Below are positions 52,871 to 64,000 of a stretch of 64,000 nucleotides of DNA, piece after piece. The notes under the pieces are model-generated. The model saw only the letters and a program-made list of their open reading frames with translations, ran no database searches and had not been told where the DNA came from. The translations under genes and the position numbers were made by a program. Each line of letters begins with the position of its first letter. Position 1 is the first letter of the stretch. The DNA comes from Macrostomum lignano (Eukaryota), in the NCBI GenBank assembly GCA_002269645.1, contig NIVC01002941.1, forward strand, positions 99,347 to 163,346. The letters are read 5' to 3'.

Positions 52871-54630
52871 GCATCTTTATACTCTGGCAGAAATTGAGAC
52901 AGAGAAAGCAGAAGCGAAGAACAACAATACGAGTATAAGCACATGCATAAGCAGAAATGGCATGCAAATGTAGATTGTCTCAGAAAGTGTTCAGACAGGC
53001 CAGCCGTGAGCACCTCTGAGATCTCAGCAGCGCCGGCAGAAGCTGTAGATCACCAGGAGGCAATAAATTAGAGGGGTCGGCCTTGTAGGGACGGGGAATT
53101 TAATCAGTCCTGGGTCTGCTATGGATTTTGTACATGCGAGCTCACGCGGGGCGTCCCAGAGGCTGGCTGATATATAATTACCTCAATAGCCATAAAACAC
53201 GATTTCCAGTCTTTACAAGGCCGCCGATTCTTGTTTTTCCATCGATAAATAAAATTCCGCACTGACTACTTGCAACTGAGACTGGCAAAAAATTAATTAA
53301 TTTGATAACTATGCGAGACAGACTGCACGTTTCTTTTGGCTCAAAGGTTGTTGGAAAAATTTATTGCAGAAAACCGCTGCATGGGAATTGCATATAGGAC
53401 TCGCCATCTTCATTGGCTCCTGGTTTGGCAGTCCTGAGCCTTGATCATCAGTATATTAAACTCTCTAGCCCTTTCGACGATTTATAATTTCGAGCTTGTG
53501 ACAGCTAACCCTTTTTCGACTCACCGATATGTTACGTTAAACAATTTTTAAGGCAGTTTTTTCACGAAGAAACGCATGCACTTTTGCGAGTGTTTCTTGA
53601 AAACAGAAACCTGCATCATTACGCTCGTAACAGGAAGCAGCACCTGGATCAGTTGGCGTGCTATCAAAAGCTTCTGCGGCATTGCAGGAAATCTGAGGAA
53701 TTTGCTTGGCTTCCAGAATGCACAAGTTAATTAACGCTGGCCCCGATCGTGCAGCCCTTTTCACAATAGCATGTAGCGGAAGTACTCGAAATTCAACAAT
53801 TTCTGCAAACACGTCCAGCTCACTAATTAAATCCCAGCTACTCACTTGTCTGTTTTCAATCGATCCGAAGGGATCTATTTCAGTAGTATGGGATAACAGA
53901 ACTCTGCCGCAGGAATTTCCGTGGAAAAGCCATGGGCCCTAGTGAGTGAACATACGGGCCTATGTAAATCCATTGAGCGACTCTGCCGCAGGGCAGGCCA
54001 TGGAAATTCCGTGAGACCTCCTAGTGAGAGTACATTGGTGCAAGTATTTGCGAATGGGGTGGGGCTCCGCGGGAATTCCGTTAACCGCAATGAATGAGTA
54101 TTGGCAAATGCGTGTTCTGCTACGACGGACACAGGCGGTTCGGTTCATAAAACCAGGCAATGCTTTGCTTCTGAATGACATTTAATATTCCATCGGGTAT
54201 CGTAAAAGGAGGAGGGGCGTGTCTTTATTTCAATGATTACAATAAAATCAATTTGCAATTCATGTCTAAAATTTGAGCTACCAACTGTTGAAAAATCACT
54301 TGATTTTGGAATTTAAGGATTTTGGAATTTTGGAATTAATTGAAACTTTTGCCTATTAATTAGGCAAAAGTTTCAATAACAAGATGCTGCTTTAATAAGA
54401 TTATAATAGCCAAGCATCTCCCCCTTTCTTGGGGTGGTGGGTGTGTTGCTAAATGGAATTGGACGCTCAATAATTATCAGTTTTATTGCTCCCCAGTCTG
54501 GTCGGGAGTTCCAGTTGGCGGCAAGTGCAAAGGAACTTTTGTACATGTATGCTTTCAATAGAGGCTCTGTATCTGGGTTTTCTAATAAAATTATTTTAAA
54601 AAACCGGTTTCTGAGACGGCTGGGTTACTG

Positions 54631-54724
54631 ACTGTAAACATAGCTAAGCTGTAAACATAGCTAAGCTGTAAACATAGCGGCTATGTTTTTATTAACACAG
54701 ATTCGAATAAGCGAGGTATATAAG
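54631..54724 (+). promoter_or_regulatory. Candidate promoter: three TGTAAACA (forkhead-type) repeats, a palindrome and a TATATAAG box upstream of ORF 54819
   Basis: 17-bp unit CTGTAAACATAGCTAAG repeated; AAACATAGC-G-GCTATGTTT palindrome at 54670-54688; TATATAA at 54717-54723. Confidence 0.55.
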
Positions 54725-54818
54725 ACACCGTATACTTGAATACGGGACATAAGTTTCTACTTCTAATTTGAATTTAACTTCAATTTGATTTTTCTATTCA
54801 AACATTAAAAAATTTGGA

Positions 54819-55997
54819 ATGAATAAATCGCGCTGCCCTTCATATGTGTACGAGGTATGCATTTCCTGCAACTCATGTGAGCTCGGTGGCTTAAAACGTC
54901 ACAAAATGAAAAGCAGCTGCAATGTCAGTCGCTGGCTGCTTTGCCACGAGTGCCAGACGCGTGAGCTCTTTAATGTGCGCCAGCAAGTTCGAGCTCACAA
55001 AAACCACATTATTATTAACTGGAGCTCACCTGGAGATTTAAAACGAGCCCGCTTTGCTGCCTTGGAGGCTGCCCAGCGTCAAGAGCAGCTCAACATTATC
55101 GAGCGCAGTCGAGCACCGGTCAGCGCACTCAGCCAGACAATTCAGGGCGTCTTTCAGCAGCCTGATGAAGATTTTCAGCACGCTACCGATGCAAACTTTG
55201 ATCTGCTTGCCGCTGCACTTGCCGCTGTGGAGCAGCAATCAGATTTTTTTGGTTCAGCCGCTGCGCCAGCTGCTGATGCCGGCCTCCCAGCTGACGGTGC
55301 CGGCCTTCCAACTACTGATGCCGGCCTCCCAGCTGACGGTGCCGGCCTTCCAACTACTGATGCCGGCCTCCCAGCTGACGGTGCCGGCCTTCCAACTACT
55401 GATGCCGGCCTCCCAGCTGACGGTGCCGGCCTTCCAACTACTGATGCCGGCCTCCCAGCTGACGGTGCCGGCCTTCCAACTACTGATGCTGGCCTCCCAG
55501 CTGACGGTGCCGGCCTTCCAACTACTGATGCCGGCCTCCCAGCTGACAGTGCCGGCCTTCCAACTGCTGATGCCGGCCTCCCAGCTGGCAGTGCCGGCCT
55601 TCCAACTGCTGATGCCGGCCTCCCAGCTGACGATTCCACTGGTTTTGCAGCTCCTTCGGAGTTGGATACTGCCTTCTTCGAGGATGTCGATTTGGAGCCT
55701 GTTGAGCTGGCAAATGAAGAAGCTGAGCAGCAACAGATGCCACCCTACAGGCCTGTTCCAGTCGCAGGAAAAAATATGGAGCAAGCCAGAATGATGGCAG
55801 AAGCAAGCCTATCCGATCTCCTGCGAGAATTCGAACCTCCTACTCCACCGGCTGCACCAGAAATCCAAACCGGTGACATCCCAGTCGTAGAAGCCATGCC
55901 ACCGATGCCACCGTCAGTCTGCATTCAGCTGGTACTACCGAGCAGAGTCGAGGGCGAGTATTTTATTGACCTTGGGGAGGAACTCGCATTCGCTTAA
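54819..55997 (+). CDS. Polinton-associated 392-aa protein: N-terminal CxxC...H zinc-finger-like motifs, 14-aa repeats (42-bp unit, 55275-55630), acidic/Pro-rich C-terminus
   Basis: Long ORF with non-repetitive flanks, an upstream TATA box and a downstream AATAAA (56197-56202); CISC...KRHK and CHEC...RAHKNH. Confidence 0.65.
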   Translation: MNKSRCPSYVYEVCISCNSCELGGLKRHKMKSSCNVSRWLLCHECQTRELFNVRQQVRAHKNHIIINWSSPGDLKRARFAALEAAQRQEQLNIIERSRAPVSALSQTIQGVFQQPDEDFQHATDANFDLLAAALAAVEQQSDFFGSAAAPAADAGLPADGAGLPTTDAGLPADGAGLPTTDAGLPADGAGLPTTDAGLPADGAGLPTTDAGLPADGAGLPTTDAGLPADGAGLPTTDAGLPADSAGLPTADAGLPAGSAGLPTADAGLPADDSTGFAAPSELDTAFFEDVDLEPVELANEEAEQQQMPPYRPVPVAGKNMEQARMMAEASLSDLLREFEPPTPPAAPEIQTGDIPVVEAMPPMPPSVCIQLVLPSRVEGEYFIDLGEELAFA

Positions 55998-56699
55998 GTA
56001 GCTCTTAAAGTGTCCCAGTTCAAAGTATTTAAAAGTAGGGGAAACGAGATTTGTAGATTTTTAGGGTAAAACCAATGCATTCTACCCTGCATAAATATTA
56101 ACTAATTACGTTGCACCTCATCGTGCTCATACAGGTTTCTCATAAACAAAGTGAAAAAGAAAATAATTTAGGCTTACTGTTCAAACTTATTCTTATAATA
56201 AAGCTTTAATAAGCAGCTTTAATTAGTAGGGTGACTAACGAGCATGATTTTTTGCATTGCGAAATGCTTTACCAGAAATATAATGGATTGATGGTTGCTT
56301 TTAATGAAAGCTTTTGCACTTTCTTGGACTTTGTTGAATTCATTACTTGTTTTTTTTTTTCAATCATGTGAATATCTTCGAAGAAGTTATAGGTTCACTC
56401 GCTTATAGAATTACCGTTAGGTTCACAGCATCTACTCAACTCTATGAGTATAATATGGGATTGATGATCTATGATACCCAATGTTTAGAATGACATGAAT
56501 TTGGTTTGTCAAGCATGACTTTGGTTAGATTCAATTTCTGCTCCATAGAGCTCTGAATGCTGGAAATTTATCACTCCACTACATCTCTGACAGAATTGCA
56601 CTTGGGTTAAATTTATCAAACAACACTTTTACACTGGAATTTCAGCAGCATTGAGTTCTTCACTAAATGTCGCTCTATTTCTAATATTAATTCTCTGTA

Positions 56700-59600
56700 A
56701 TGGCCACCTCATCGAGTCAAGAGGACGAGCCGGTGGACCCAGCTGTCAGCCACGAATTTGGACCGAGTGGTAAGTTTTTTCATTCCATTGCTGGTTTTAT
56801 GAACTCATGCATTTCTGTTTGTTGCATTCCTGTCTCTTAGCAACGGAATTATTTATATTTTTCTCGCCTACACAACAATTCCCAAATGGTTCCCAACAGG
56901 ATTAAGCCGGAGAACTCACAATAATGAGACATTTTTATTCCTCATTAGATGAATTGACAAAAATGCGAAAGCAGAACTCCATCTATTTCTTCAATAATAA
57001 CTCTTCAAATTCTTTTTTTACACTTATACGTAGCTCGTATTGATTAATAAAAAATATTAAATCTAGATATAAGGTAGTAGGATAAATAGTATACTCGTAA
57101 GTGTAAAAAAGGGCAATAAAATATTCGACTTCCATAACTCCCAGAGACATTTCTCATCATTTCCACTTTCCATAAATATTTTTAATACTATCTTCCCTTC
57201 TTCAATTGTAGGACCTTCATTCACCCTGGCGTTAAAAACCAGCGCTCACGAAGATGTTCTTCAAGTTCATCGATTTACACCTGGAGCTGCCACTGAAACA
57301 TTCGAGTTTCTCGATTTCTGCAAAATCGCAGTGCAGCAGTGTCTTGAAATTCGCTTCGACTCTTCGGATAATTGCTCTGTTAAAGCTCAGATCAAACTGA
57401 ATTTGCGCATGGTCAGAGTGCAGGCGTCAGAAGCTGTCAAGGGGGAGGATAAATGGATGAGCACACAACTCGGATTGGTGGTAGATATACAGGAGTTTGA
57501 TGATTGGTGGAGACAGCAGTTTACAGAGCTGGAGCGCAAAGTCGATGTCTACAACACCAACGGTAGTGGCTGGATAATTGAAAAAATCAATTTTTTTGAA
57601 CTTTACTCAGCTCTCGTCGAACGAGTTTCCTACTACACGGGGCATGCTGCGGAATTTATTCTACCGACTCCACTTCTTCGGAAGAAGGCGGTTATTTGTC
57701 CTCCAAGCAATGGTGTAAATTGCTTTCTTTACGCATGCCTTGCTTTTCTGCACAAGGAAGACAACAAAATAAAGAAATCAGCGCAACGCGAGTCTTCCTA
57801 CACTGACTGGCTGGATGAACTTAACATGAGTGGAATTGACTTGCCAATCAATGTCACCGACCTTTCCATTGTTGAGAGACTGAACCCGAGACTTTGCTTC
57901 ACGGTTTTCATCTGGGAGAAAGAGAGCGCTCAAGTCCTCCGCTTGCCTACTGCAGCTACAATTAAAGATCGAGAAGTTGTTCTACTCTTATTTATTCCAC
58001 CATCAGAAGACGAGGCCTCGGGTCATTGGTGTGCTGTTTCAAGCATCAACAGGCTTCTTAATAGCAAGGCAGCTCTGCATCGGCGGAAGTGGTGTGAGCG
58101 CTGCTTGCTGCCCTTTCATAGTGATGCAGCCTTTGAAGAACACAGCCGAGCTCCTTGTCAACCTGGAGTGATCAACGTCAAGGAAGAGTTGCCAGATGAA
58201 AGGAATAATATTCTCCGATTCTCATCATGGGAAAAAACAATTAGTCCGCCATTTGTTGTTTACGCCGACTTCGAAGCATTGAATGCTCCATGCCAAGAAG
58301 ATTCGATTGCTGGTATAGCAACGAAGAAGTTAACTGAGCACATTGCTGTTGCTGCTGGCTACATCGTGCTGCACAGAGAAGGGATGACTGGTCTAGCGCC
58401 CAGAGGAGCGGATGATAAAGTGAGCACTTTTGTCAGCGACGATCCTAATAAGTGCATTTCCGATTTCCTGCAATCGCTGGAGAAGCTCGCTCGTGAAGTT
58501 TACGGCTGGAACACGGAGTTCAGTCGACAAGCAGCGATAAGAACAGAGATGGCAGGGCGACAGTTCAGAGAAGCCACAGCTTGCTGCTATTGTAGAAGCG
58601 AATTCACGGAAGGGTCCAATAAACATTGGGATCACGACCACCTCAGCGGAGAATTTCGGGGAGCTGCGTGTGCTGATTGTAATATGAAGGCCAGACTAAA
58701 GAGGTCTTTCCTTCCCGTCGTGTTCCACAATTTCAAGGGGTACGATCTCCATCTCATGATGTCATCCGCTTTGGGTCTGATGGAGGGTTGGAAAATCTCC
58801 GTCATCCCTCTGAATCCAGAGCAGTTTCTGTCGATGAAAATCGAATTTAAAATCGGCGAGTATGAGAGTGAGGGCAAGATCAAGCCTTTAAATTTTACTA
58901 TTCAGTTCATTGATTCGAATCAATTTCTTAATGCCAGCCTCTCACAGCTCATCAAAAATTTACCAGAGGCTGAATGTCGTATCACTAGTCGCCTACGCAG
59001 CAGCAGATTCCCACTGCTATCATCCGAAGTGCTTTTCAGCAAGGGAGTTTTCCCGTATGACTATCTTAAAAATTCAGACGTGCTGAAGGATGCCGTGCTT
59101 CCCAGCCAAGAGAGCTTCTACAATGCTCTGACTAAGAGCCACTGCACCAACTCTGACTATGAGCATGCTCAACGCGCCTGGCGAGAATTTCAGGTTTCAA
59201 ATCTAAAAGAGTACATGCTGTGCTACCTCGAGCTCGACATCAGGCAGTTGGCTGATATTTTTGAAAATTTTCGCAAGATCAGCATGCAAGAGGATGGCCT
59301 TGATCCAGTCCATTTTATTTCGACACCAGGCCTATCATTCGCTTCGGCATTGAAATCCATCAAGTCAGGGATTGAACTGCTAACAGATGCGCAGATGTAT
59401 TCGCTGTTTGAGCGCGGCATTCGCGGCGGCATGTCGTTTGTTAACATCCACAAAGTGCAGGCTACCTCAGCAGCGGGCGCCAGCACTGGTGTTGACAGCA
59501 ATGAGGATGTTGATGGTGGCACTCCTACTATTCATGCTGGCCTCACCGAGCTTCTTGCTGTGGATGCAAACAACCTGTATGGACAGGCGCTCACTATGAA

Positions 59601-60854
59601 CTTACCAGTCGGAGGATTCCGTTGGCTGGACGATGATGAGCTGCTTTTGTGGACTGAAGATCGCATTCGAGGACTCAAGCTAACCGATCCACTCGCCTAC
59701 CTCTTTGATGTTGACCTTGAGTATCCCCCAGAGATTCACGAAACCACCGAAGACCTACCATTTGCACCGGAAAAGGCTGCCCCGAATTTCAGGGAATTTC
59801 CTGAATACATGCAGCAGCTGTGGGAAAAGGTCGGTACGGAGAACTCCACCTATCATCCGACAGAGAAGCTGATGCTCACTTGTCACGATAAGCCTTCCTA
59901 TGTGGTTCATTCCTCTATTTTGGCGTTCTACCTGAACCATGGAATGCGGGTTAGACGCATCAATCGCATGATTGAGTTTCACCAAGAGCCTCTCTTTGCT
60001 GCCTACGTCGAGAAAAATAGCCAGAAGCGGGCTGCAGCGAAAACCAACTTCGAAAAGGATTTCTACAAGTTAAAGAATAACGCGCTATTCGGCAAAACTA
60101 TGGAGAATGTGCGAAAGCGGCGTGATATTCGAGTCTGCACCAACGTGGAAAAGGTAAAGGTACTGCTTGCCAAGCCGACAATTACCAATTTTATCATAAT
60201 TACTGATTCACTAAGCGTTTTGGAACTGCAAAAGACAAAATTAAAGCTCGATCGGCCTATTTTTATCGGGCAATGCGTCCTAGACTTTTCGAAAATGATT
60301 ATGTACGAGCTGTTTTACGACAAACTGAAGCCCTGGATAGAGAACGATGGAGGTGTCATCAAGCTATGCGGTGGTGATACCGATTCTTTCTTTCTCTCAA
60401 TCAGCAACATGAGCGTTCAGTCTAAAGTTCTACCGCTGTTGAAGTCGAAGCAGCTGCTCGACACTTCAAACTATCCTCAAGAGCACGCGCTATTCTCGAA
60501 TGATTTAAAAGCGCGACTTGGCTGCATTAAGGATGAAGCAGCCGGTGCTCGCTTTGAGGAGTGGCTGCTCCTAAGGCCGAAGCTTTACTCATTCAAGGCG
60601 AGTAGCCAAGCCGCGGAAAAGAAGAAGGCCAAAGGAGTTCAAGGATGCATTGTTAAGAAAGAGCTGGCTCACAGTGACTACCTAAGGGTGTTCAATGAGC
60701 TCTGCAGCCATTCTGTCGTTGTTCATCGTATTGCCAGCATCCATCACCGACTGTACACTTTGCAGCAGCGGAAGTGTGCCTTAAGCATTTGGGAAGACAA
60801 GCGCGCTTGGCTGAGCCCTAACTATAGTCTCCCATTTGGTCACATTCGGCTGCT

Positions 60855-60923
<69 letters not shown>

Positions 60924-61011
60924 GCAACAGCAGCAACAACAACAACAACAACAACAACAACAGCAGCAGCAACAGCAGCAGAAATCATCAAAACGGCGCC
61001 GACTACTTTGA
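56700..61011 (+). CDS. Protein-primed family B DNA polymerase of the Polinton; predicted join(56700-56769,57212-61011)
   Basis: ExoI YADFE, ExoII HNFKGYD, KGVFPYDY, PolA DANNLYG, PolB KLKNNALFGKT, PolC GGDTDS, RPKLY, KAKGV. Endonuclease-VII-like 'DHDHLSGEFRGAACADCN'. No ATG lies in frame upstream, but a phase-matched GT-AG intron supplies one. Confidence 0.95.
60856..60981 (+). repeat. In-frame (CAG/CAA)n tract encoding ~41 Gln at the PolB C-terminus
   Basis: Read directly. Confidence 0.95.
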
Positions 61012-61571
61012 AATTGAATAATGAGTACAACAAGCTTGCTAAACAAAAACAATAATTTCTTTGCGATTTCAAAGTTTCTTTCTTTGACATTGAATAAAGG
61101 TTAACCGCTAATCTAAATAGGATTTTTTCCAAATGCAATAAAAACTTTGATCATCTGCTGAGGCTAGCAACAATTTTTTGCTTCACAATATTTACTTACA
61201 ATTGCGCGATGATGATAATGAAACCAATGCTTCGTTAGTGGTGGTGGTGGTGTTTGCGGTGATGGCATGTGAGAGTTTTATTTTTTTCTAATTTTACCTG
61301 TACTTTGTGGTTGGTTTTTTGAATCCTGATATTGCTTTATAAGTTTTAATATATTCCATCTGCTTTTGGACTATTTTTTCCTATTTTTGTAGTGGTTTAT
61401 CTGCTTGCTCGTATTTGCTTTTAGCTTGCTATTTGTTTATCTCTACAAGATGTTCACCACTGGTTTTTCATTGCAATTAAAAATGAAGACAAAAAAGCTA
61501 GTGCATGAGAGAGAATTAATTTGAATATTTTAATTAAACAAGCCGCGATTTATTCTTTCTTTTTATTTATT

Positions 61572-62137
61572 TCAGTTTGAAAGCAAGCAAGCTAATAGGG
61601 AACGGTCTGATTGTAGCATATGCTTAGACTTTGCTCCGCTGAGCACAAATGAGCCATTGTGAAAAAGCGTACACTTGCAGTATTGAAGCTGACAAACTAA
61701 AGCAGTAAAACTTTCAGGTTCATATTTCGCATTCGGTAGCACTTCACAGAGGTTTCTTAGTGATAGAGCCTTGGGCAAGTCTATTTTTCCATAAGCAGTA
61801 ATAGTCTTAATTCGGACACAAACGGATTGACGAGGCAGCAGTTGAGGCGGAACTCTGCGATGCAGCATAGCCACGAAGCGACGGGCAGCCTTGACTGAGG
61901 CCGAGTAGCTCCGGGCGCCACAGATACTCAGTTGTCCAGTCGGATAGAGCAACAGAGTCACTCTGGGATTCCGCATCCTCTTGATGAGCACTCGGGCCAG
62001 ACGGGGCGATAGATGACATGAGCCATGCTGAGAGCCAGTTCCCGCAGAGGCAACTGGGCACCCCTGCCTCCAGCCAGCCTCAGATCCACGCCGCCAACCA
62101 GATTGGTCACTCGCAGGGCTGTCGCAGGTGTACTCAT
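61572..62137 (-). CDS. Divergent TATA-box-binding protein (TBP)-like protein in the Polinton; one -1 frameshift at ~62004
   Basis: ATG at 62137 gives MSTPATALRVTNLVGGVDL...LPLRELALSMAHVIYRP. This continues in the track's frame as RLARVLIKRMRNPRVTLLLYPTGQLSICGARS...AARRF and RIKTITAYG...YEPESFTAL...TLFHNGSFVLSGAKS. Both TBP repeats are present. Confidence 0.85.
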
Positions 62138-62154
62138 TTAGAGAGTCCTTTCTG

Positions 62155-62651
62155 TCAGTGGTGCTGTCTTTGAGAGCCTTTGAGTGGTGCGGGCACACCT
62201 CGCTTCTTAAGTTGATACAGAACTTTGGCTTCAGCCAGTTGTAGTAGAGCAATACATTTTTCACTGCACAACCAGTATCAGATGCTTGAATCAAAGGTGA
62301 TCCCAGATCCTCTAGGTTGTACACCTGTCTGCCAAGCAGCTCAGTCAGAAAGATGGACTTTTTCACCCCGCTTGTCCAGGTGGGGCCGTAAGCAATGTTT
62401 AGAATGTCATTTGCCAAATGCATGTACGATCGGGATCCATCTGTCCACTTGAAATGATGCAAATTCTTTGAGAGCTTTCTGTAATGCACCTGCATCTCAG
62501 GTGAGATTCGCTCCCATGAGAACGGAGAGGCGTACACGTGATGAGTGATATGGTAACTGCCTGCCCGGACTTGGGCAATGGCTAGCTCCTTCACAACGAA
62601 ATCTCTGCTCGATCTCTCGCGTGGGAAGCCTTGGAAGTCAATATAGTTCAT
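62155..62651 (-). CDS. Polinton DEDD/DnaQ-like exonuclease-fold protein (C-terminal boundary uncertain)
   Basis: IDFQGF...FVVKELA...SPFSW...HHFKWTDG...EDLGSP...CAVKNV...W pattern, seen in small exonuclease-like ORFs of invertebrate Polintons. Confidence 0.6.
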
Positions 62652-62691: not shown

Positions 62692-63383
62692 TCAGTTCCC
62701 CTTCTTAAATAGTTTTTTCCTGTTCAGCTGTAGCCAAGCTCTCCCACTCCCGAATCCTTTAACTGTATGATGAGCAGGGGCGGCCTCTGGAGAAACAGCA
62801 GGTTTAGAAATTAGCTGCCTAACTGACTTTCCTATGGCCGAAGCTGGGATGTTAAGCTTTTTATCTTGGAGCAATGAGACAAACTCACTCCAGCCCACCG
62901 GCTCGCTGGCACATTTCGAATCCCTCACGGCACTGTGAAACAAATCCAGGATGTTTGAGGAGGGTATTGTCTTCCCACAAATTTGCGCCTCGCCATTTTC
63001 GGACACCCGAATCAGAGAAGGATTGCCAGATAGGATGGCCCATAGACTGCGGGCTCTCGCTTTAAACTTCTGCGGCACGGATTGGGTGATCTTTTCCCCC
63101 AGCTGCTTGGTGCAATATCAGTTTTCAGCATCTTTGCATCACTCGCAGGTACCGCATCATCCTTTCCAGTCCGCTTGCGCTTGGCCAGCAAACTCTTCAT
63201 CGCATCATGGTACATGGCAGCTTTCACATCGTCTGGGCAATCCTCGGCAAGCAAAATATCATTGCATTTCCTCTGCGCATATCTCACAGCAGTGTCGAGT
63301 TCAGACTCAACTGGCTTCAAATTCTGTGTGAGCATGTCGTATTCTGACTTGGGGATCAGAACCATTTCTGAGAACTTATTCAT
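62692..63383 (-). CDS. Conserved Polinton hypothetical protein, split by a 1-bp frameshift at ~63096-63100
   Basis: N-part MVLIP...IL...PDDVKAAMY and C-part GE..I.G..IP.SNILDL...P.GW..F...L...NIPASAIG join if one G is added to the G5 run. Confidence 0.65.
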
Positions 63384-63693
63384 TTTGTTTCTTTTTCTTC
63401 ACTAGCTTTATTAGAATGTAGAGAATTTTGATAAAACCCGTATTTAGCAGATCCGCAGCTCTTCTATGTGTAGAAATTTTGCGGATTATTTGCTTTTGCT
63501 TCACTAGCGCTGCCTTTTCAGTGAGTGAGAACGACAGAGTGTTTTGCAATAGGTTATAGCAGGCCTCAATGAGAAATTCATGTACTGCTTTTGGACCCGC
63601 TCTGATCAACAGACGTTTAAAGCTGATGGAATATTTCGGTGAGGCGAGAACATCAAACAAACTTTCATGTGAGTCGAATGTTTCCATTATCAT
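63376..63693 (-). CDS. Conserved small basic Polinton protein downstream of the ATPase (~105 aa)
   Basis: 'FLIEACYNLLQNTL...KQKQIIRKI...GFIKIL' resembles the ORF that commonly follows the Polinton ATPase; its stop overlaps the next ATG (ATGAATAA). Confidence 0.6.
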   Translation of the reverse strand: MIMETFDSHESLFDVLASPKYSISFKRLLIRAGPKAVHEFLIEACYNLLQNTLSFSLTEKAALVKQKQIIRKISTHRRAADLLNTGFIKILYILIKLVKKKKQNE

Positions 63694-63740
63694 TAGTGTT
63701 GCAGAATATAGAGCAAATGGCAAAATCTCGGCTGTTATTC

Positions 63741-64000
63741 TTAAGTGTAAACCAGGTGGGGTCGCTGATTGGGCAGGATTCGAGCCCGGACCGCAGCTCA
63801 TCAGGGGTGGAAGGGTGAAAATCCAGGAGCAGGTAGGCTCCCCTGCCGTGCGATGTCACGTGCTTGAACACTGACAGCAGAAAGCCGGGCTTCTCAGCAA
63901 AACACTGCCTGCCCAGCGCCGCAATCTGCAGCTGGTCTCTGGGGTTCTTCATGATCACAAAGTACATCGCATTCAGACTCATTGTTCGCAACTCCTTCCC
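63741..64000 (-). CDS. Polinton A32/FtsK-like packaging ATPase, C-terminal part; 1-bp frameshift at ~63791
   Basis: GKELRTMSLNAMYFVIMKNPRDQLQI..LGRQ.F...YLLLDFHP.TPDELR; after frame correction it continues VRARILPNQRPHLVYT*. Confidence 0.88.

Follow-up and report, generated by a model that had tools for sequence, protein, structure and literature searches.

A TBP-like gene and two classes of upstream signal in a multi-copy Polinton of the flatworm Macrostomum lignano

The question of how animal Polintons activate their capsid genes, and of whether these elements behave as viruses, was approached here through one element copy in the flatworm Macrostomum lignano. The stretch analyzed (64,000 nucleotides of contig NIVC01002941.1, here C2941, from a 764-Mb genome; hereafter the window) is the terminal part of its contig, and from position 53882 to the contig end it matched other copies of the element at more than 99%. 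An initial annotation had proposed that host factors switch on a zinc-finger gene at the left end of the element, and that this factor and a TBP homolog on the opposite strand then drive the ATPase and capsid genes, as in the early/late cascade of adenoviruses. The element is a multi-copy Polinton and the window holds its left arm. A terminal inverted repeat (TIR) of 132 bp starts at 53882, so that the zinc-finger open reading frame (ORF) at 54819 does lie inside the element, as had been supposed, and so does the TBP-like gene. Target duplications of 6 bp surrounded both of the two other copies for which both ends could be read; the right end of the window's copy lies beyond the contig.

The TBP-like gene and its reading frame

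The homology to TBP stood up, but the ORF to which it had been assigned did not. The Pfam TBP profile matched the minus-strand ORF of the window with an E of 2.6e-19 and a near-identical copy with an E of 1.3e-22, here in two stretches. However, the window's ORF of 359 amino acids (aa) at 61572-62651 is an unrelated upstream ORF, named 'IDFQGF' here, joined to the TBP-like gene minus its first 44 residues. The fusion is created by an indel near 61994, which only contig C2930 shares. The TBP-like frame was examined at 43 distinct places and was separate in 36, fused in 5 and fragmentary in 2; the separate frame encodes 185-196 aa, with one copy shortened to 150. With six subfamily representatives, omega in the TBP frame was 0.11-0.25 over codons 8-108 and 0.10-0.22 over codons 112-175 where measurable (8/15 pairs), compared to 0.9-4.8 in the frame overlapping it, indicating that selection acts on the TBP frame over its full length, and thus also on the segment dropped by the fusion. 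The TBP-like frame is under purifying selection, whereas the 359-aa ORF arose by a frameshift that fused two genes in just a few copies, and it is not the TBP gene.

It is very improbable that the fusion is itself a functional product, for instance one made by programmed frameshifting in the other copies. The IDFQGF ORF does remain open for 110-128 codons across the N-terminal half of the TBP-like gene in both families that carry it, family 1 of the window and family 2 described below (window 61807-62137; L094:6865-7250), with chance probabilities of 0.02 and 0.002, and fused frames occur at five places. However, the indels of these five places sit at four different positions, two run contigs cross the 61994 site gap-free when compared with a two-frame copy, and the fusion drops TBP residues 1-44, on which purifying selection acts in the TBP frame. 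Synonymous divergence was several-fold lower in the overlap of the two genes (the N-terminal half) than in the C-terminal half of the TBP-like gene. The IDFQGF ORF had no matches in PDB or PHROG; by its look it may be nuclease-like.

The AF2 model of the TBP-like protein predicts a two-repeat saddle fold (pLDDT 76), which Foldseek matched to archaeal and eukaryotic TBP structures with TM scores of 0.73-0.82 and an E of about 1e-12, at a sequence identity to host TBP of 25-30%. Cellular TBP has four Phe that intercalate into DNA and contacts TFIIB through the glutamates of its stirrup (PMC10005294), and central Asn/Thr contacts have been described as well (PMC12716038). Relative to host TBP, the alignment showed N12, YEPE (139-142), F144 and F159 to be retained. 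The first intercalating Phe is replaced by P48, adjacent to W47, in a placement that depends on the alignment, the second by Y65, and the second central Asn by T112. Thus, in place of the four Phe and two Asn of a canonical TBP, the protein has Pro/Tyr/Phe/Phe and Asn/Thr, and by sequence it keeps the C-terminal acidic stirrup for TFIIB, whose EPE was invariant in all 11 aligned sequences. On the DNA face, N12 and three aromatics are conserved in families 1 and 2.

When 1.84 billion representatives were searched, five matches fell below 1e-30, namely three from the host's databases, one Logan protein and one environmental protein. In a tree of 33 rows, the Polinton TBP-like proteins joined the environmental proteins P0009 and P0016 in a long-branch clade (100/99). 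Host TBP fell outside this clade, and so did the TRF2 pair (100/100), with which the Polinton proteins did not group. A grouping with host TBP was marginally rejected (p-AU 0.04, with long branches and a group that was defined once an earlier tree had been seen), and for this reason no donor is claimed for the gene. Many divergent TBP-like proteins of 170-210 aa, possibly viral, were also seen in environmental and run contigs (P0028, P0029, P0050, P0051, P0074, P0161-P0179). As these and P0009 and P0016 come without genomic context, they cannot be called Polinton genes: scans of viral contigs yielded no context for the outside relatives, and a metagenome scan gave 11 loci, of which the six inspected were ordinary or unrelated TBPs, one of them on a context-free 1.2-kb contig. 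The host's own TBP and TRF2-like genes (L075, L076) are intact single frames with three loci each in the assembly.

Two classes of upstream signal and their possible reading

The gene order was taken from near-identical copies. The left arm carries, on the plus strand, the Cys/His-acidic (zinc-finger) ORF and then DNA polymerase B. The right arm runs on the opposite strand, head to tail and nearly without spacers, and from the central spacer outward it reads: the TBP-like gene, the IDFQGF ORF, a 230-aa and a 105-aa ORF, an ATPase (P-loop, weak Pox_A32 match), an adenain-type protease (Pfam C5, E 4e-5), a 427-aa ORF, a 138-aa basic ORF, a 269-aa ORF, an integrase (of the retroviral type, with rve and chromo domains by Pfam in a near-identical copy) and finally, beyond the window, a PC4-like gene. 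Going by size and order, the 427-aa ORF is the putative capsid and the 269-aa ORF the putative penton; neither of these capsid-like ORFs had a Pfam match.

Upstream sequences were compared for all genes of the fetched subfamilies. A TATA[AT]A[AT] motif lies 60-112 nt upstream of the PC4-like gene in 10/10 and of the zinc-finger ORF in 8/10 distinct sequences, the remaining two having ATATAAG. In the right block, by comparison, TAAGAA, mostly as YTTAAGAA, precedes eight of ten genes: integrase (10/10, not counting two rows in which frameshifted copies were projected a second time), penton (8/8), basic (8/8, at -147), capsid (11/11, at about -105), ATPase (11/11), 105-aa (10/10), IDFQGF (11/11) and TBP-like (9/10). 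It was not found within 200 nt of the protease (0/9) or before the 230-aa ORF (0/9, five of which carry CTTAAGCT). The distance to the ATG is mostly 35-80 nt and overall about 28 to 147 nt, and the box is never nearer than about 26-28 nt, except for one family-2 site at -10 that is accompanied by a second at -93. At locus L045, YTTAAGAA occurs eight times against 1.21 expected; seven of these matches are on the coding strand, and all seven precede a gene. In the window it occurs three times inside the element and once in 53.9 kb of host flank. Since YTTAAGAA had been picked by eye, an unbiased 6-mer scan was made, in which TAAGAA/TTAAGA ranked top in two subfamilies (8/10 genes; Bonferroni P 6e-7 and 9e-8). 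The non-coding spacer before the integrase has diverged, yet TAAGAA is its one constant in 10/10 copies, and Leu-Arg pairs are encoded as TTA-AGA in 4 of 31 cases, where codon usage would predict about 0.5. YTTAAGAA retains the TAAG half of TATATAAG and differs from it in the upstream half. The element has two upstream signal classes, canonical TATA at the terminal genes and TAAGAA at most genes of the right block, and this distinction is new here.

Other Polinton families served as controls. Family 2, whose ATPase is 45% identical to that of family 1, has a TBP-like gene (35% identity, Pfam E 5e-18), the ORF overlapping it and a PC4-like gene in 6/6 copies, and a zinc-finger domain in 0/6. 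The module of two genes proposed initially was consequently upheld in part: zinc-finger and TBP-like genes occur together in 15/16 family-1 copies fetched, which were mostly picked because both genes had matched and of which the 16th is truncated, but family 2 argues against a fixed pair. The constant companions of the TBP-like gene are the PC4-like gene and the ORF overlapping TBP. In family 2, TAAGAA was the top 6-mer as well (4/8 genes, corrected P 0.086), and the TBP gene is preceded by a canonical TATAAAAG. Neither tblastn nor the profile found a TBP in family 3 (3/3 copies) or in a partial sixth family (one copy), though the profile also missed the family-5 candidate and very remote TBPs could escape it; no enriched 6-mer was seen in the one family-3 copy scanned or in the sixth family. 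Family 5 has a box of its own, TAAGCA (5/8 genes, corrected P 0.009), and a candidate ORF (L131:2315-2929) that looks TBP-like by eye, with an hhalign E of 0.002, a probability of 13% and no Pfam or PDB match. This family (L131:2315-3621; L127:3266-4132) also encodes a deoxynucleoside/thymidylate kinase and a dUTPase.

The PC4-like profile matched PC4 structures with an E of 1.3e-8. PC4-like genes preceded by a canonical TATA box (L045:7635-8360; L117:4694-5497; L120:4281-4775) are not confined to families 1 and 2. They were also seen on elements that have a protein-primed DNA polymerase B (pPolB) but no capsid gene in the stretches fetched, and the PC4-like protein may therefore have its role in DNA replication and not in transcription.

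On balance, we lean towards an element that works in two stages, with host TBP reading the terminal TATA boxes and the element TBP reading YTTAAGAA of the structural block. Host TBP would fire the terminal promoters of the zinc-finger and PC4-like genes, and the first element TBP would be made by way of the TATA/TAAG hybrid box that precedes the overlapping upstream ORF; in family 2, the gene's own TATA would serve this purpose. This TBP would then bind YTTAAGAA of the structural block and recruit host TFIIB and thereby host RNA polymerase II (Pol II), while the zinc-finger/acidic and PC4-like proteins would act as early helpers, the zinc-finger one being dispensable. The box is a plausible TATA substitute because it lies mostly 35-80 nt before the ATG, and the element TBP is a plausible reader of it because base-reading residues have changed and the acidic stirrup was kept. 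In canonical TBP, the C-terminal repeat reads the upstream half of TATA, and it is in the C-terminal repeat that the Asn-to-Thr change sits.

A different division of labor is conceivable, in which host TBP or TRF2 reads the box with the aid of the PC4-like or zinc-finger protein and the element TBP is a decoy that binds TFIIB/TFIIA and dampens host transcription. We regard this as unlikely. In the protein, the first of the intercalating Phe is lost, as is the second Asn, while the YEPE stirrup is retained, TRF2 with a lost intercalating Phe cannot bind TATA (PMC10005294), and the host genes for TBP and TRF2 are intact. However, both families conserve N12 and three aromatics on the DNA face, and the box is rare in the host flank and absent from the scanned copies of the TBP-less families.

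We give still less credit to the view that TAAG is an initiator of the baculovirus late type, used by the polymerase of a helper virus, or an RNA-level signal, for processing or translation, by which a long right-block transcript is divided into messages, with the TBP-like protein employed otherwise, e.g., in origin binding. The core of the baculovirus late initiator is indeed TAAG, and the genes stand head to tail, nearly spacerless, with a box at widely ranging distances of about 28 to 147 nt. However, apart from the single site at -10, the box keeps at least about 26-28 nt from the ATG, as TATA spacing requires, it can be aligned with the TATATAAG boxes of the same element over their TAAG half, and no helper virus is in evidence.

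Several points weigh against the two-stage reading as well. What supports it are genes, a fold prediction, selection and the distribution of a motif, and this motif may track the lineage of the structural module instead of TBP; the comparison comprised two TBP-less families, one of them partial and neither of the same structural lineage. The box is missing before the protease and the 230-aa ORF, it lies 100-147 nt off for the capsid and basic genes, and the integrase, which is not structural, carries it. The family-1 TBP gene is itself behind a variant box, so that bootstrapping must be assumed. Moreover, the loss of the first Phe would equally fit a TBP without specific DNA binding, like TRF2, and in vitro the viral TBP of Epstein-Barr virus (EBV) binds TATT no differently from TATA (PMC4893493). 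Family 5 has its TAAGCA box while its candidate TBP-like ORF is unproven. Finally, the copies are related and recombining, and counts across them are therefore non-independent.

More tentatively, and with somewhat less confidence than in the two stages themselves, one may think of an animal Polinton lineage with a self-contained early/late programme, consisting of a bare, altered TBP core, a PC4-like protein and an overlapping partner. Here, TBP and box would have co-diverged (TAAGAA and TAAGCA), and the strategy of a viral TBP (vTBP) would have arisen independently of herpesviruses. A dedicated TBP with an 8-nt box would be a concrete switch in a laboratory flatworm whose genome holds well over 100 element-derived matches, and, if true, would make it possible to ask directly if, and at what time, the capsid genes of animal Polintons are expressed.

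The left arm: zinc-finger ORF, polymerase and spacer

The features of the window are listed in Table 1. As initially described, the zinc-finger ORF has an acidic tail and lies behind TATATAAG and a triplicated motif, with GTAAACA at 54634, 54651 and 54668. We take these TGTAAACA units to be forkhead-type sites. GTAAACA/TGTTTAC was found in 5/14 terminal-gene upstream regions, the triplication being specific to the subfamily, and p53-type half-sites were found in 0/14. The C910 copy lacks about 230 bp that precede the triplicated motif in the window (54399-54628).

The ORF had 145 matches in the genome, with identities down to about 30%. Seven residues (C14, C17, C34, C42, C45, H60 and H63) were invariant in 9/9 aligned sequences, all of which have a further His near position 29, and this pattern would fit two zinc sites. 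Omega of the N-terminal domain was 0.11 where measurable (2/3 pairs). The tail of the window's ORF has a net charge of -43 and is acidic in 18/18 sequences; its tandem repeats differ by subfamily, and acidic-hydrophobic patches and a C-terminal motif recur across subfamilies. The final codons vary among copies, and contigs of 4/4 runs deviate from the window near 55973. Pfam, PHROGs, a word search and Foldseek against viral and PDB structures (E<=0.001) gave no matches, and the best PDB sequence match, to the tandem fingers of ZNF512, was non-significant (E 0.61).

The protein could be a dispensable activator resembling the 'Oncoids' of adintoviruses. It may also be, although we would not favor it, that this ORF is an 'Oncoid' directed at cell-cycle or defence proteins of the host and is no activator of element genes. 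Adintovirus Oncoids are described as Cys-rich acidic ORFs upstream of PolB (PMC8502044), a location that matches here together with the paired CxxC, and the zinc finger is absent from family 2 despite the same box. The window's subfamily and two related ones have an LxCxE motif at residue 40 (9/18 sequences overall). However, it is absent in 7/7 sequences of more distant subfamilies, its Cys is an invariant putative zinc ligand and overlaps CxxC, and acidic-hydrophobic patches of a kind typical for activation domains are present in all subfamilies.

Downstream, the polymerase gene seems to contain a spliceosomal intron, with a phase-1 donor and an acceptor conserved in 3/3 subfamilies tested (window 56700-57212; L050:5737-6308; L054:2418-3154). 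The gene has no YTTAAGAA-type box upstream. Two of the three subfamilies are free of TATA/TAAG boxes from the left TATA box up to the acceptor, and the polymerase may therefore be spliced from the left promoter. Contigs of seven 'RNA?' runs and one unlabelled run covered the region evenly, including the putative intron, and contained no splice joint; they are uninformative on expression, starts and splicing. A CAG/CAA microsatellite (window 60862-60980) gives the polymerase a poly-Gln tail of about 40 residues. The polymerases of families 2 and 5 start with a small Cys/His finger (L090:3286; L095:4627; L131:3857), which the family-1 frame appears to lack. In the L054 copy, identity to the window was 94% in the block from TBP to ATPase and just 65-69% in the polymerase, indicating that left and right modules recombine between subfamilies.

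With regards to the spacer, the convergence of both blocks on an AT-rich stretch (31% GC) was borne out, but AATAAA, found twice on the plus strand (0.4 expected) and four times on the minus strand (1.9 expected), is weak evidence for poly(A) signals.

Table 1. Coordinates of the features discussed, in window positions.
Feature	Position	Strand	Remark
Left TIR, AGTAGT end	53882..54013	+	132 bp
Three TGTAAACA units, 17-bp spacing, running into a short palindrome	54633..54688	+	candidate host-factor sites
Canonical TATA box (TATATAAG), 'early' class	54717..54724	+	before zinc-finger ORF
Zinc-finger ORF: Cys/His (predicted two-zinc), helix, 14-aa repeats, acidic-hydrophobic patches, conserved C-terminal motif	54819..55997	+	Oncoid-like
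Putative short first exon of polymerase gene	56700..56769	+	GTAAGT donor at 56770
DNA polymerase B (protein-primed), main frame with poly-Q tail	57212..61011	+	Pfam DNA_pol_B_2, E 1e-13
AT-rich spacer between convergent blocks, 31% GC	61012..61571	.	candidate poly(A) signals, both strands
TBP-like gene, 188 aa in most copies	61572..62137	-	window copy frameshifted near 61994
'IDFQGF' ORF, 281 aa in most copies	61807..62651	-	tail overlaps TBP-like gene in other frame
CTTAAGAA box	62204..62211	-	upstream of TBP-like ATG
230-aa ORF, structural block	62692..63383	-	frameshift near 63096 in window copy
TTTAAGAA box	62702..62709	-	upstream of IDFQGF ORF; TATTTAAGAAG in window, TATATAAGAAG in most other subfamilies
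105-aa ORF, structural block	63376..63693	-	gene order of copies
CTTAAGAA box	63738..63745	-	upstream of 105-aa ORF
Packaging ATPase, 3' part	63741..64000	-	frameshift near 63791; contig stops at 64000

Comparison with known systems

The element shares with Polintons and adintoviruses the TIRs, the 6-bp target duplication, pPolB and a chromodomain integrase, along with an ATPase, a protease of the adenain type, putative capsid genes and an ORF resembling the Oncoids (PMC8502044). Unlike in sections 3.2 and 3.4 of that account, which describe no promoter classes, TBP-like and PC4-like genes are fixed here in two animal Polinton families. The legend of its Fig. 5 uses a TBP label for elements from non-animal datasets; the text part of its supplement does not contain TBP, PC4, Macrostomum or TATA, and the figure content may bear on novelty. 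TBPs are also mentioned in mirusvirus-like elements (PMC10675990). A pairing of TBP and variant box in animal Polintons was not found in the literature searched, in which subscription papers were thinly covered.

With cellular TBP and TRF2 (TBPL1), the TBP-like protein has the saddle fold, the YEPE stirrup, N12, F144 and F159 in common, but it forms a long-branch clade of its own and has the first Phe and the second Asn replaced. The PC4-like profile matches structures of PC4/Sub1, but the gene is encoded by the element. The zinc-finger ORF resembles adenovirus E1A and the adintovirus Oncoids as the first left-end gene behind a TATA box, with Cys pairs and an acidic disordered tail; no sequence or fold similarity to them was detected, and its LxCxE is unconserved and overlaps a putative zinc ligand.

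As for the cascade proposed at the outset, the split into TATA and TAAGAA genes, which was not known to the initial annotation, lends real support to early and late classes, but these would be herpesvirus-like rather than adenovirus-like. Adenovirus relies on host TBP, and by analogy the vTBP/TATT system of herpesviruses would therefore be the closer model. Pfam families of the ORF24/BcRF1/UL87 type were not found on the element ORFs scanned, and the TBP-like protein is thus no member of the herpesvirus family. Nor does the bare 188-aa core have the extra Pol II-binding domain or five recognizable partners of the herpesvirus vTBP, and the box that it is predicted to bind is YTTAAGAA instead of TATT. 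Nevertheless, as in beta- and gamma-herpesviruses (EBV BcRF1, Kaposi's sarcoma-associated herpesvirus ORF24, human cytomegalovirus UL87), a TBP-fold protein is encoded by the element itself, canonical TATA stands at early-type genes and a variant box at structural genes (PMC4893493, PMC7498053), and no viral RNA polymerase was seen. If the two-stage reading is true, the Polinton would hold a natural altered-specificity TBP/TATA pair and would add a second case, independent of the first, to the strategy by which herpesviruses express their late genes.

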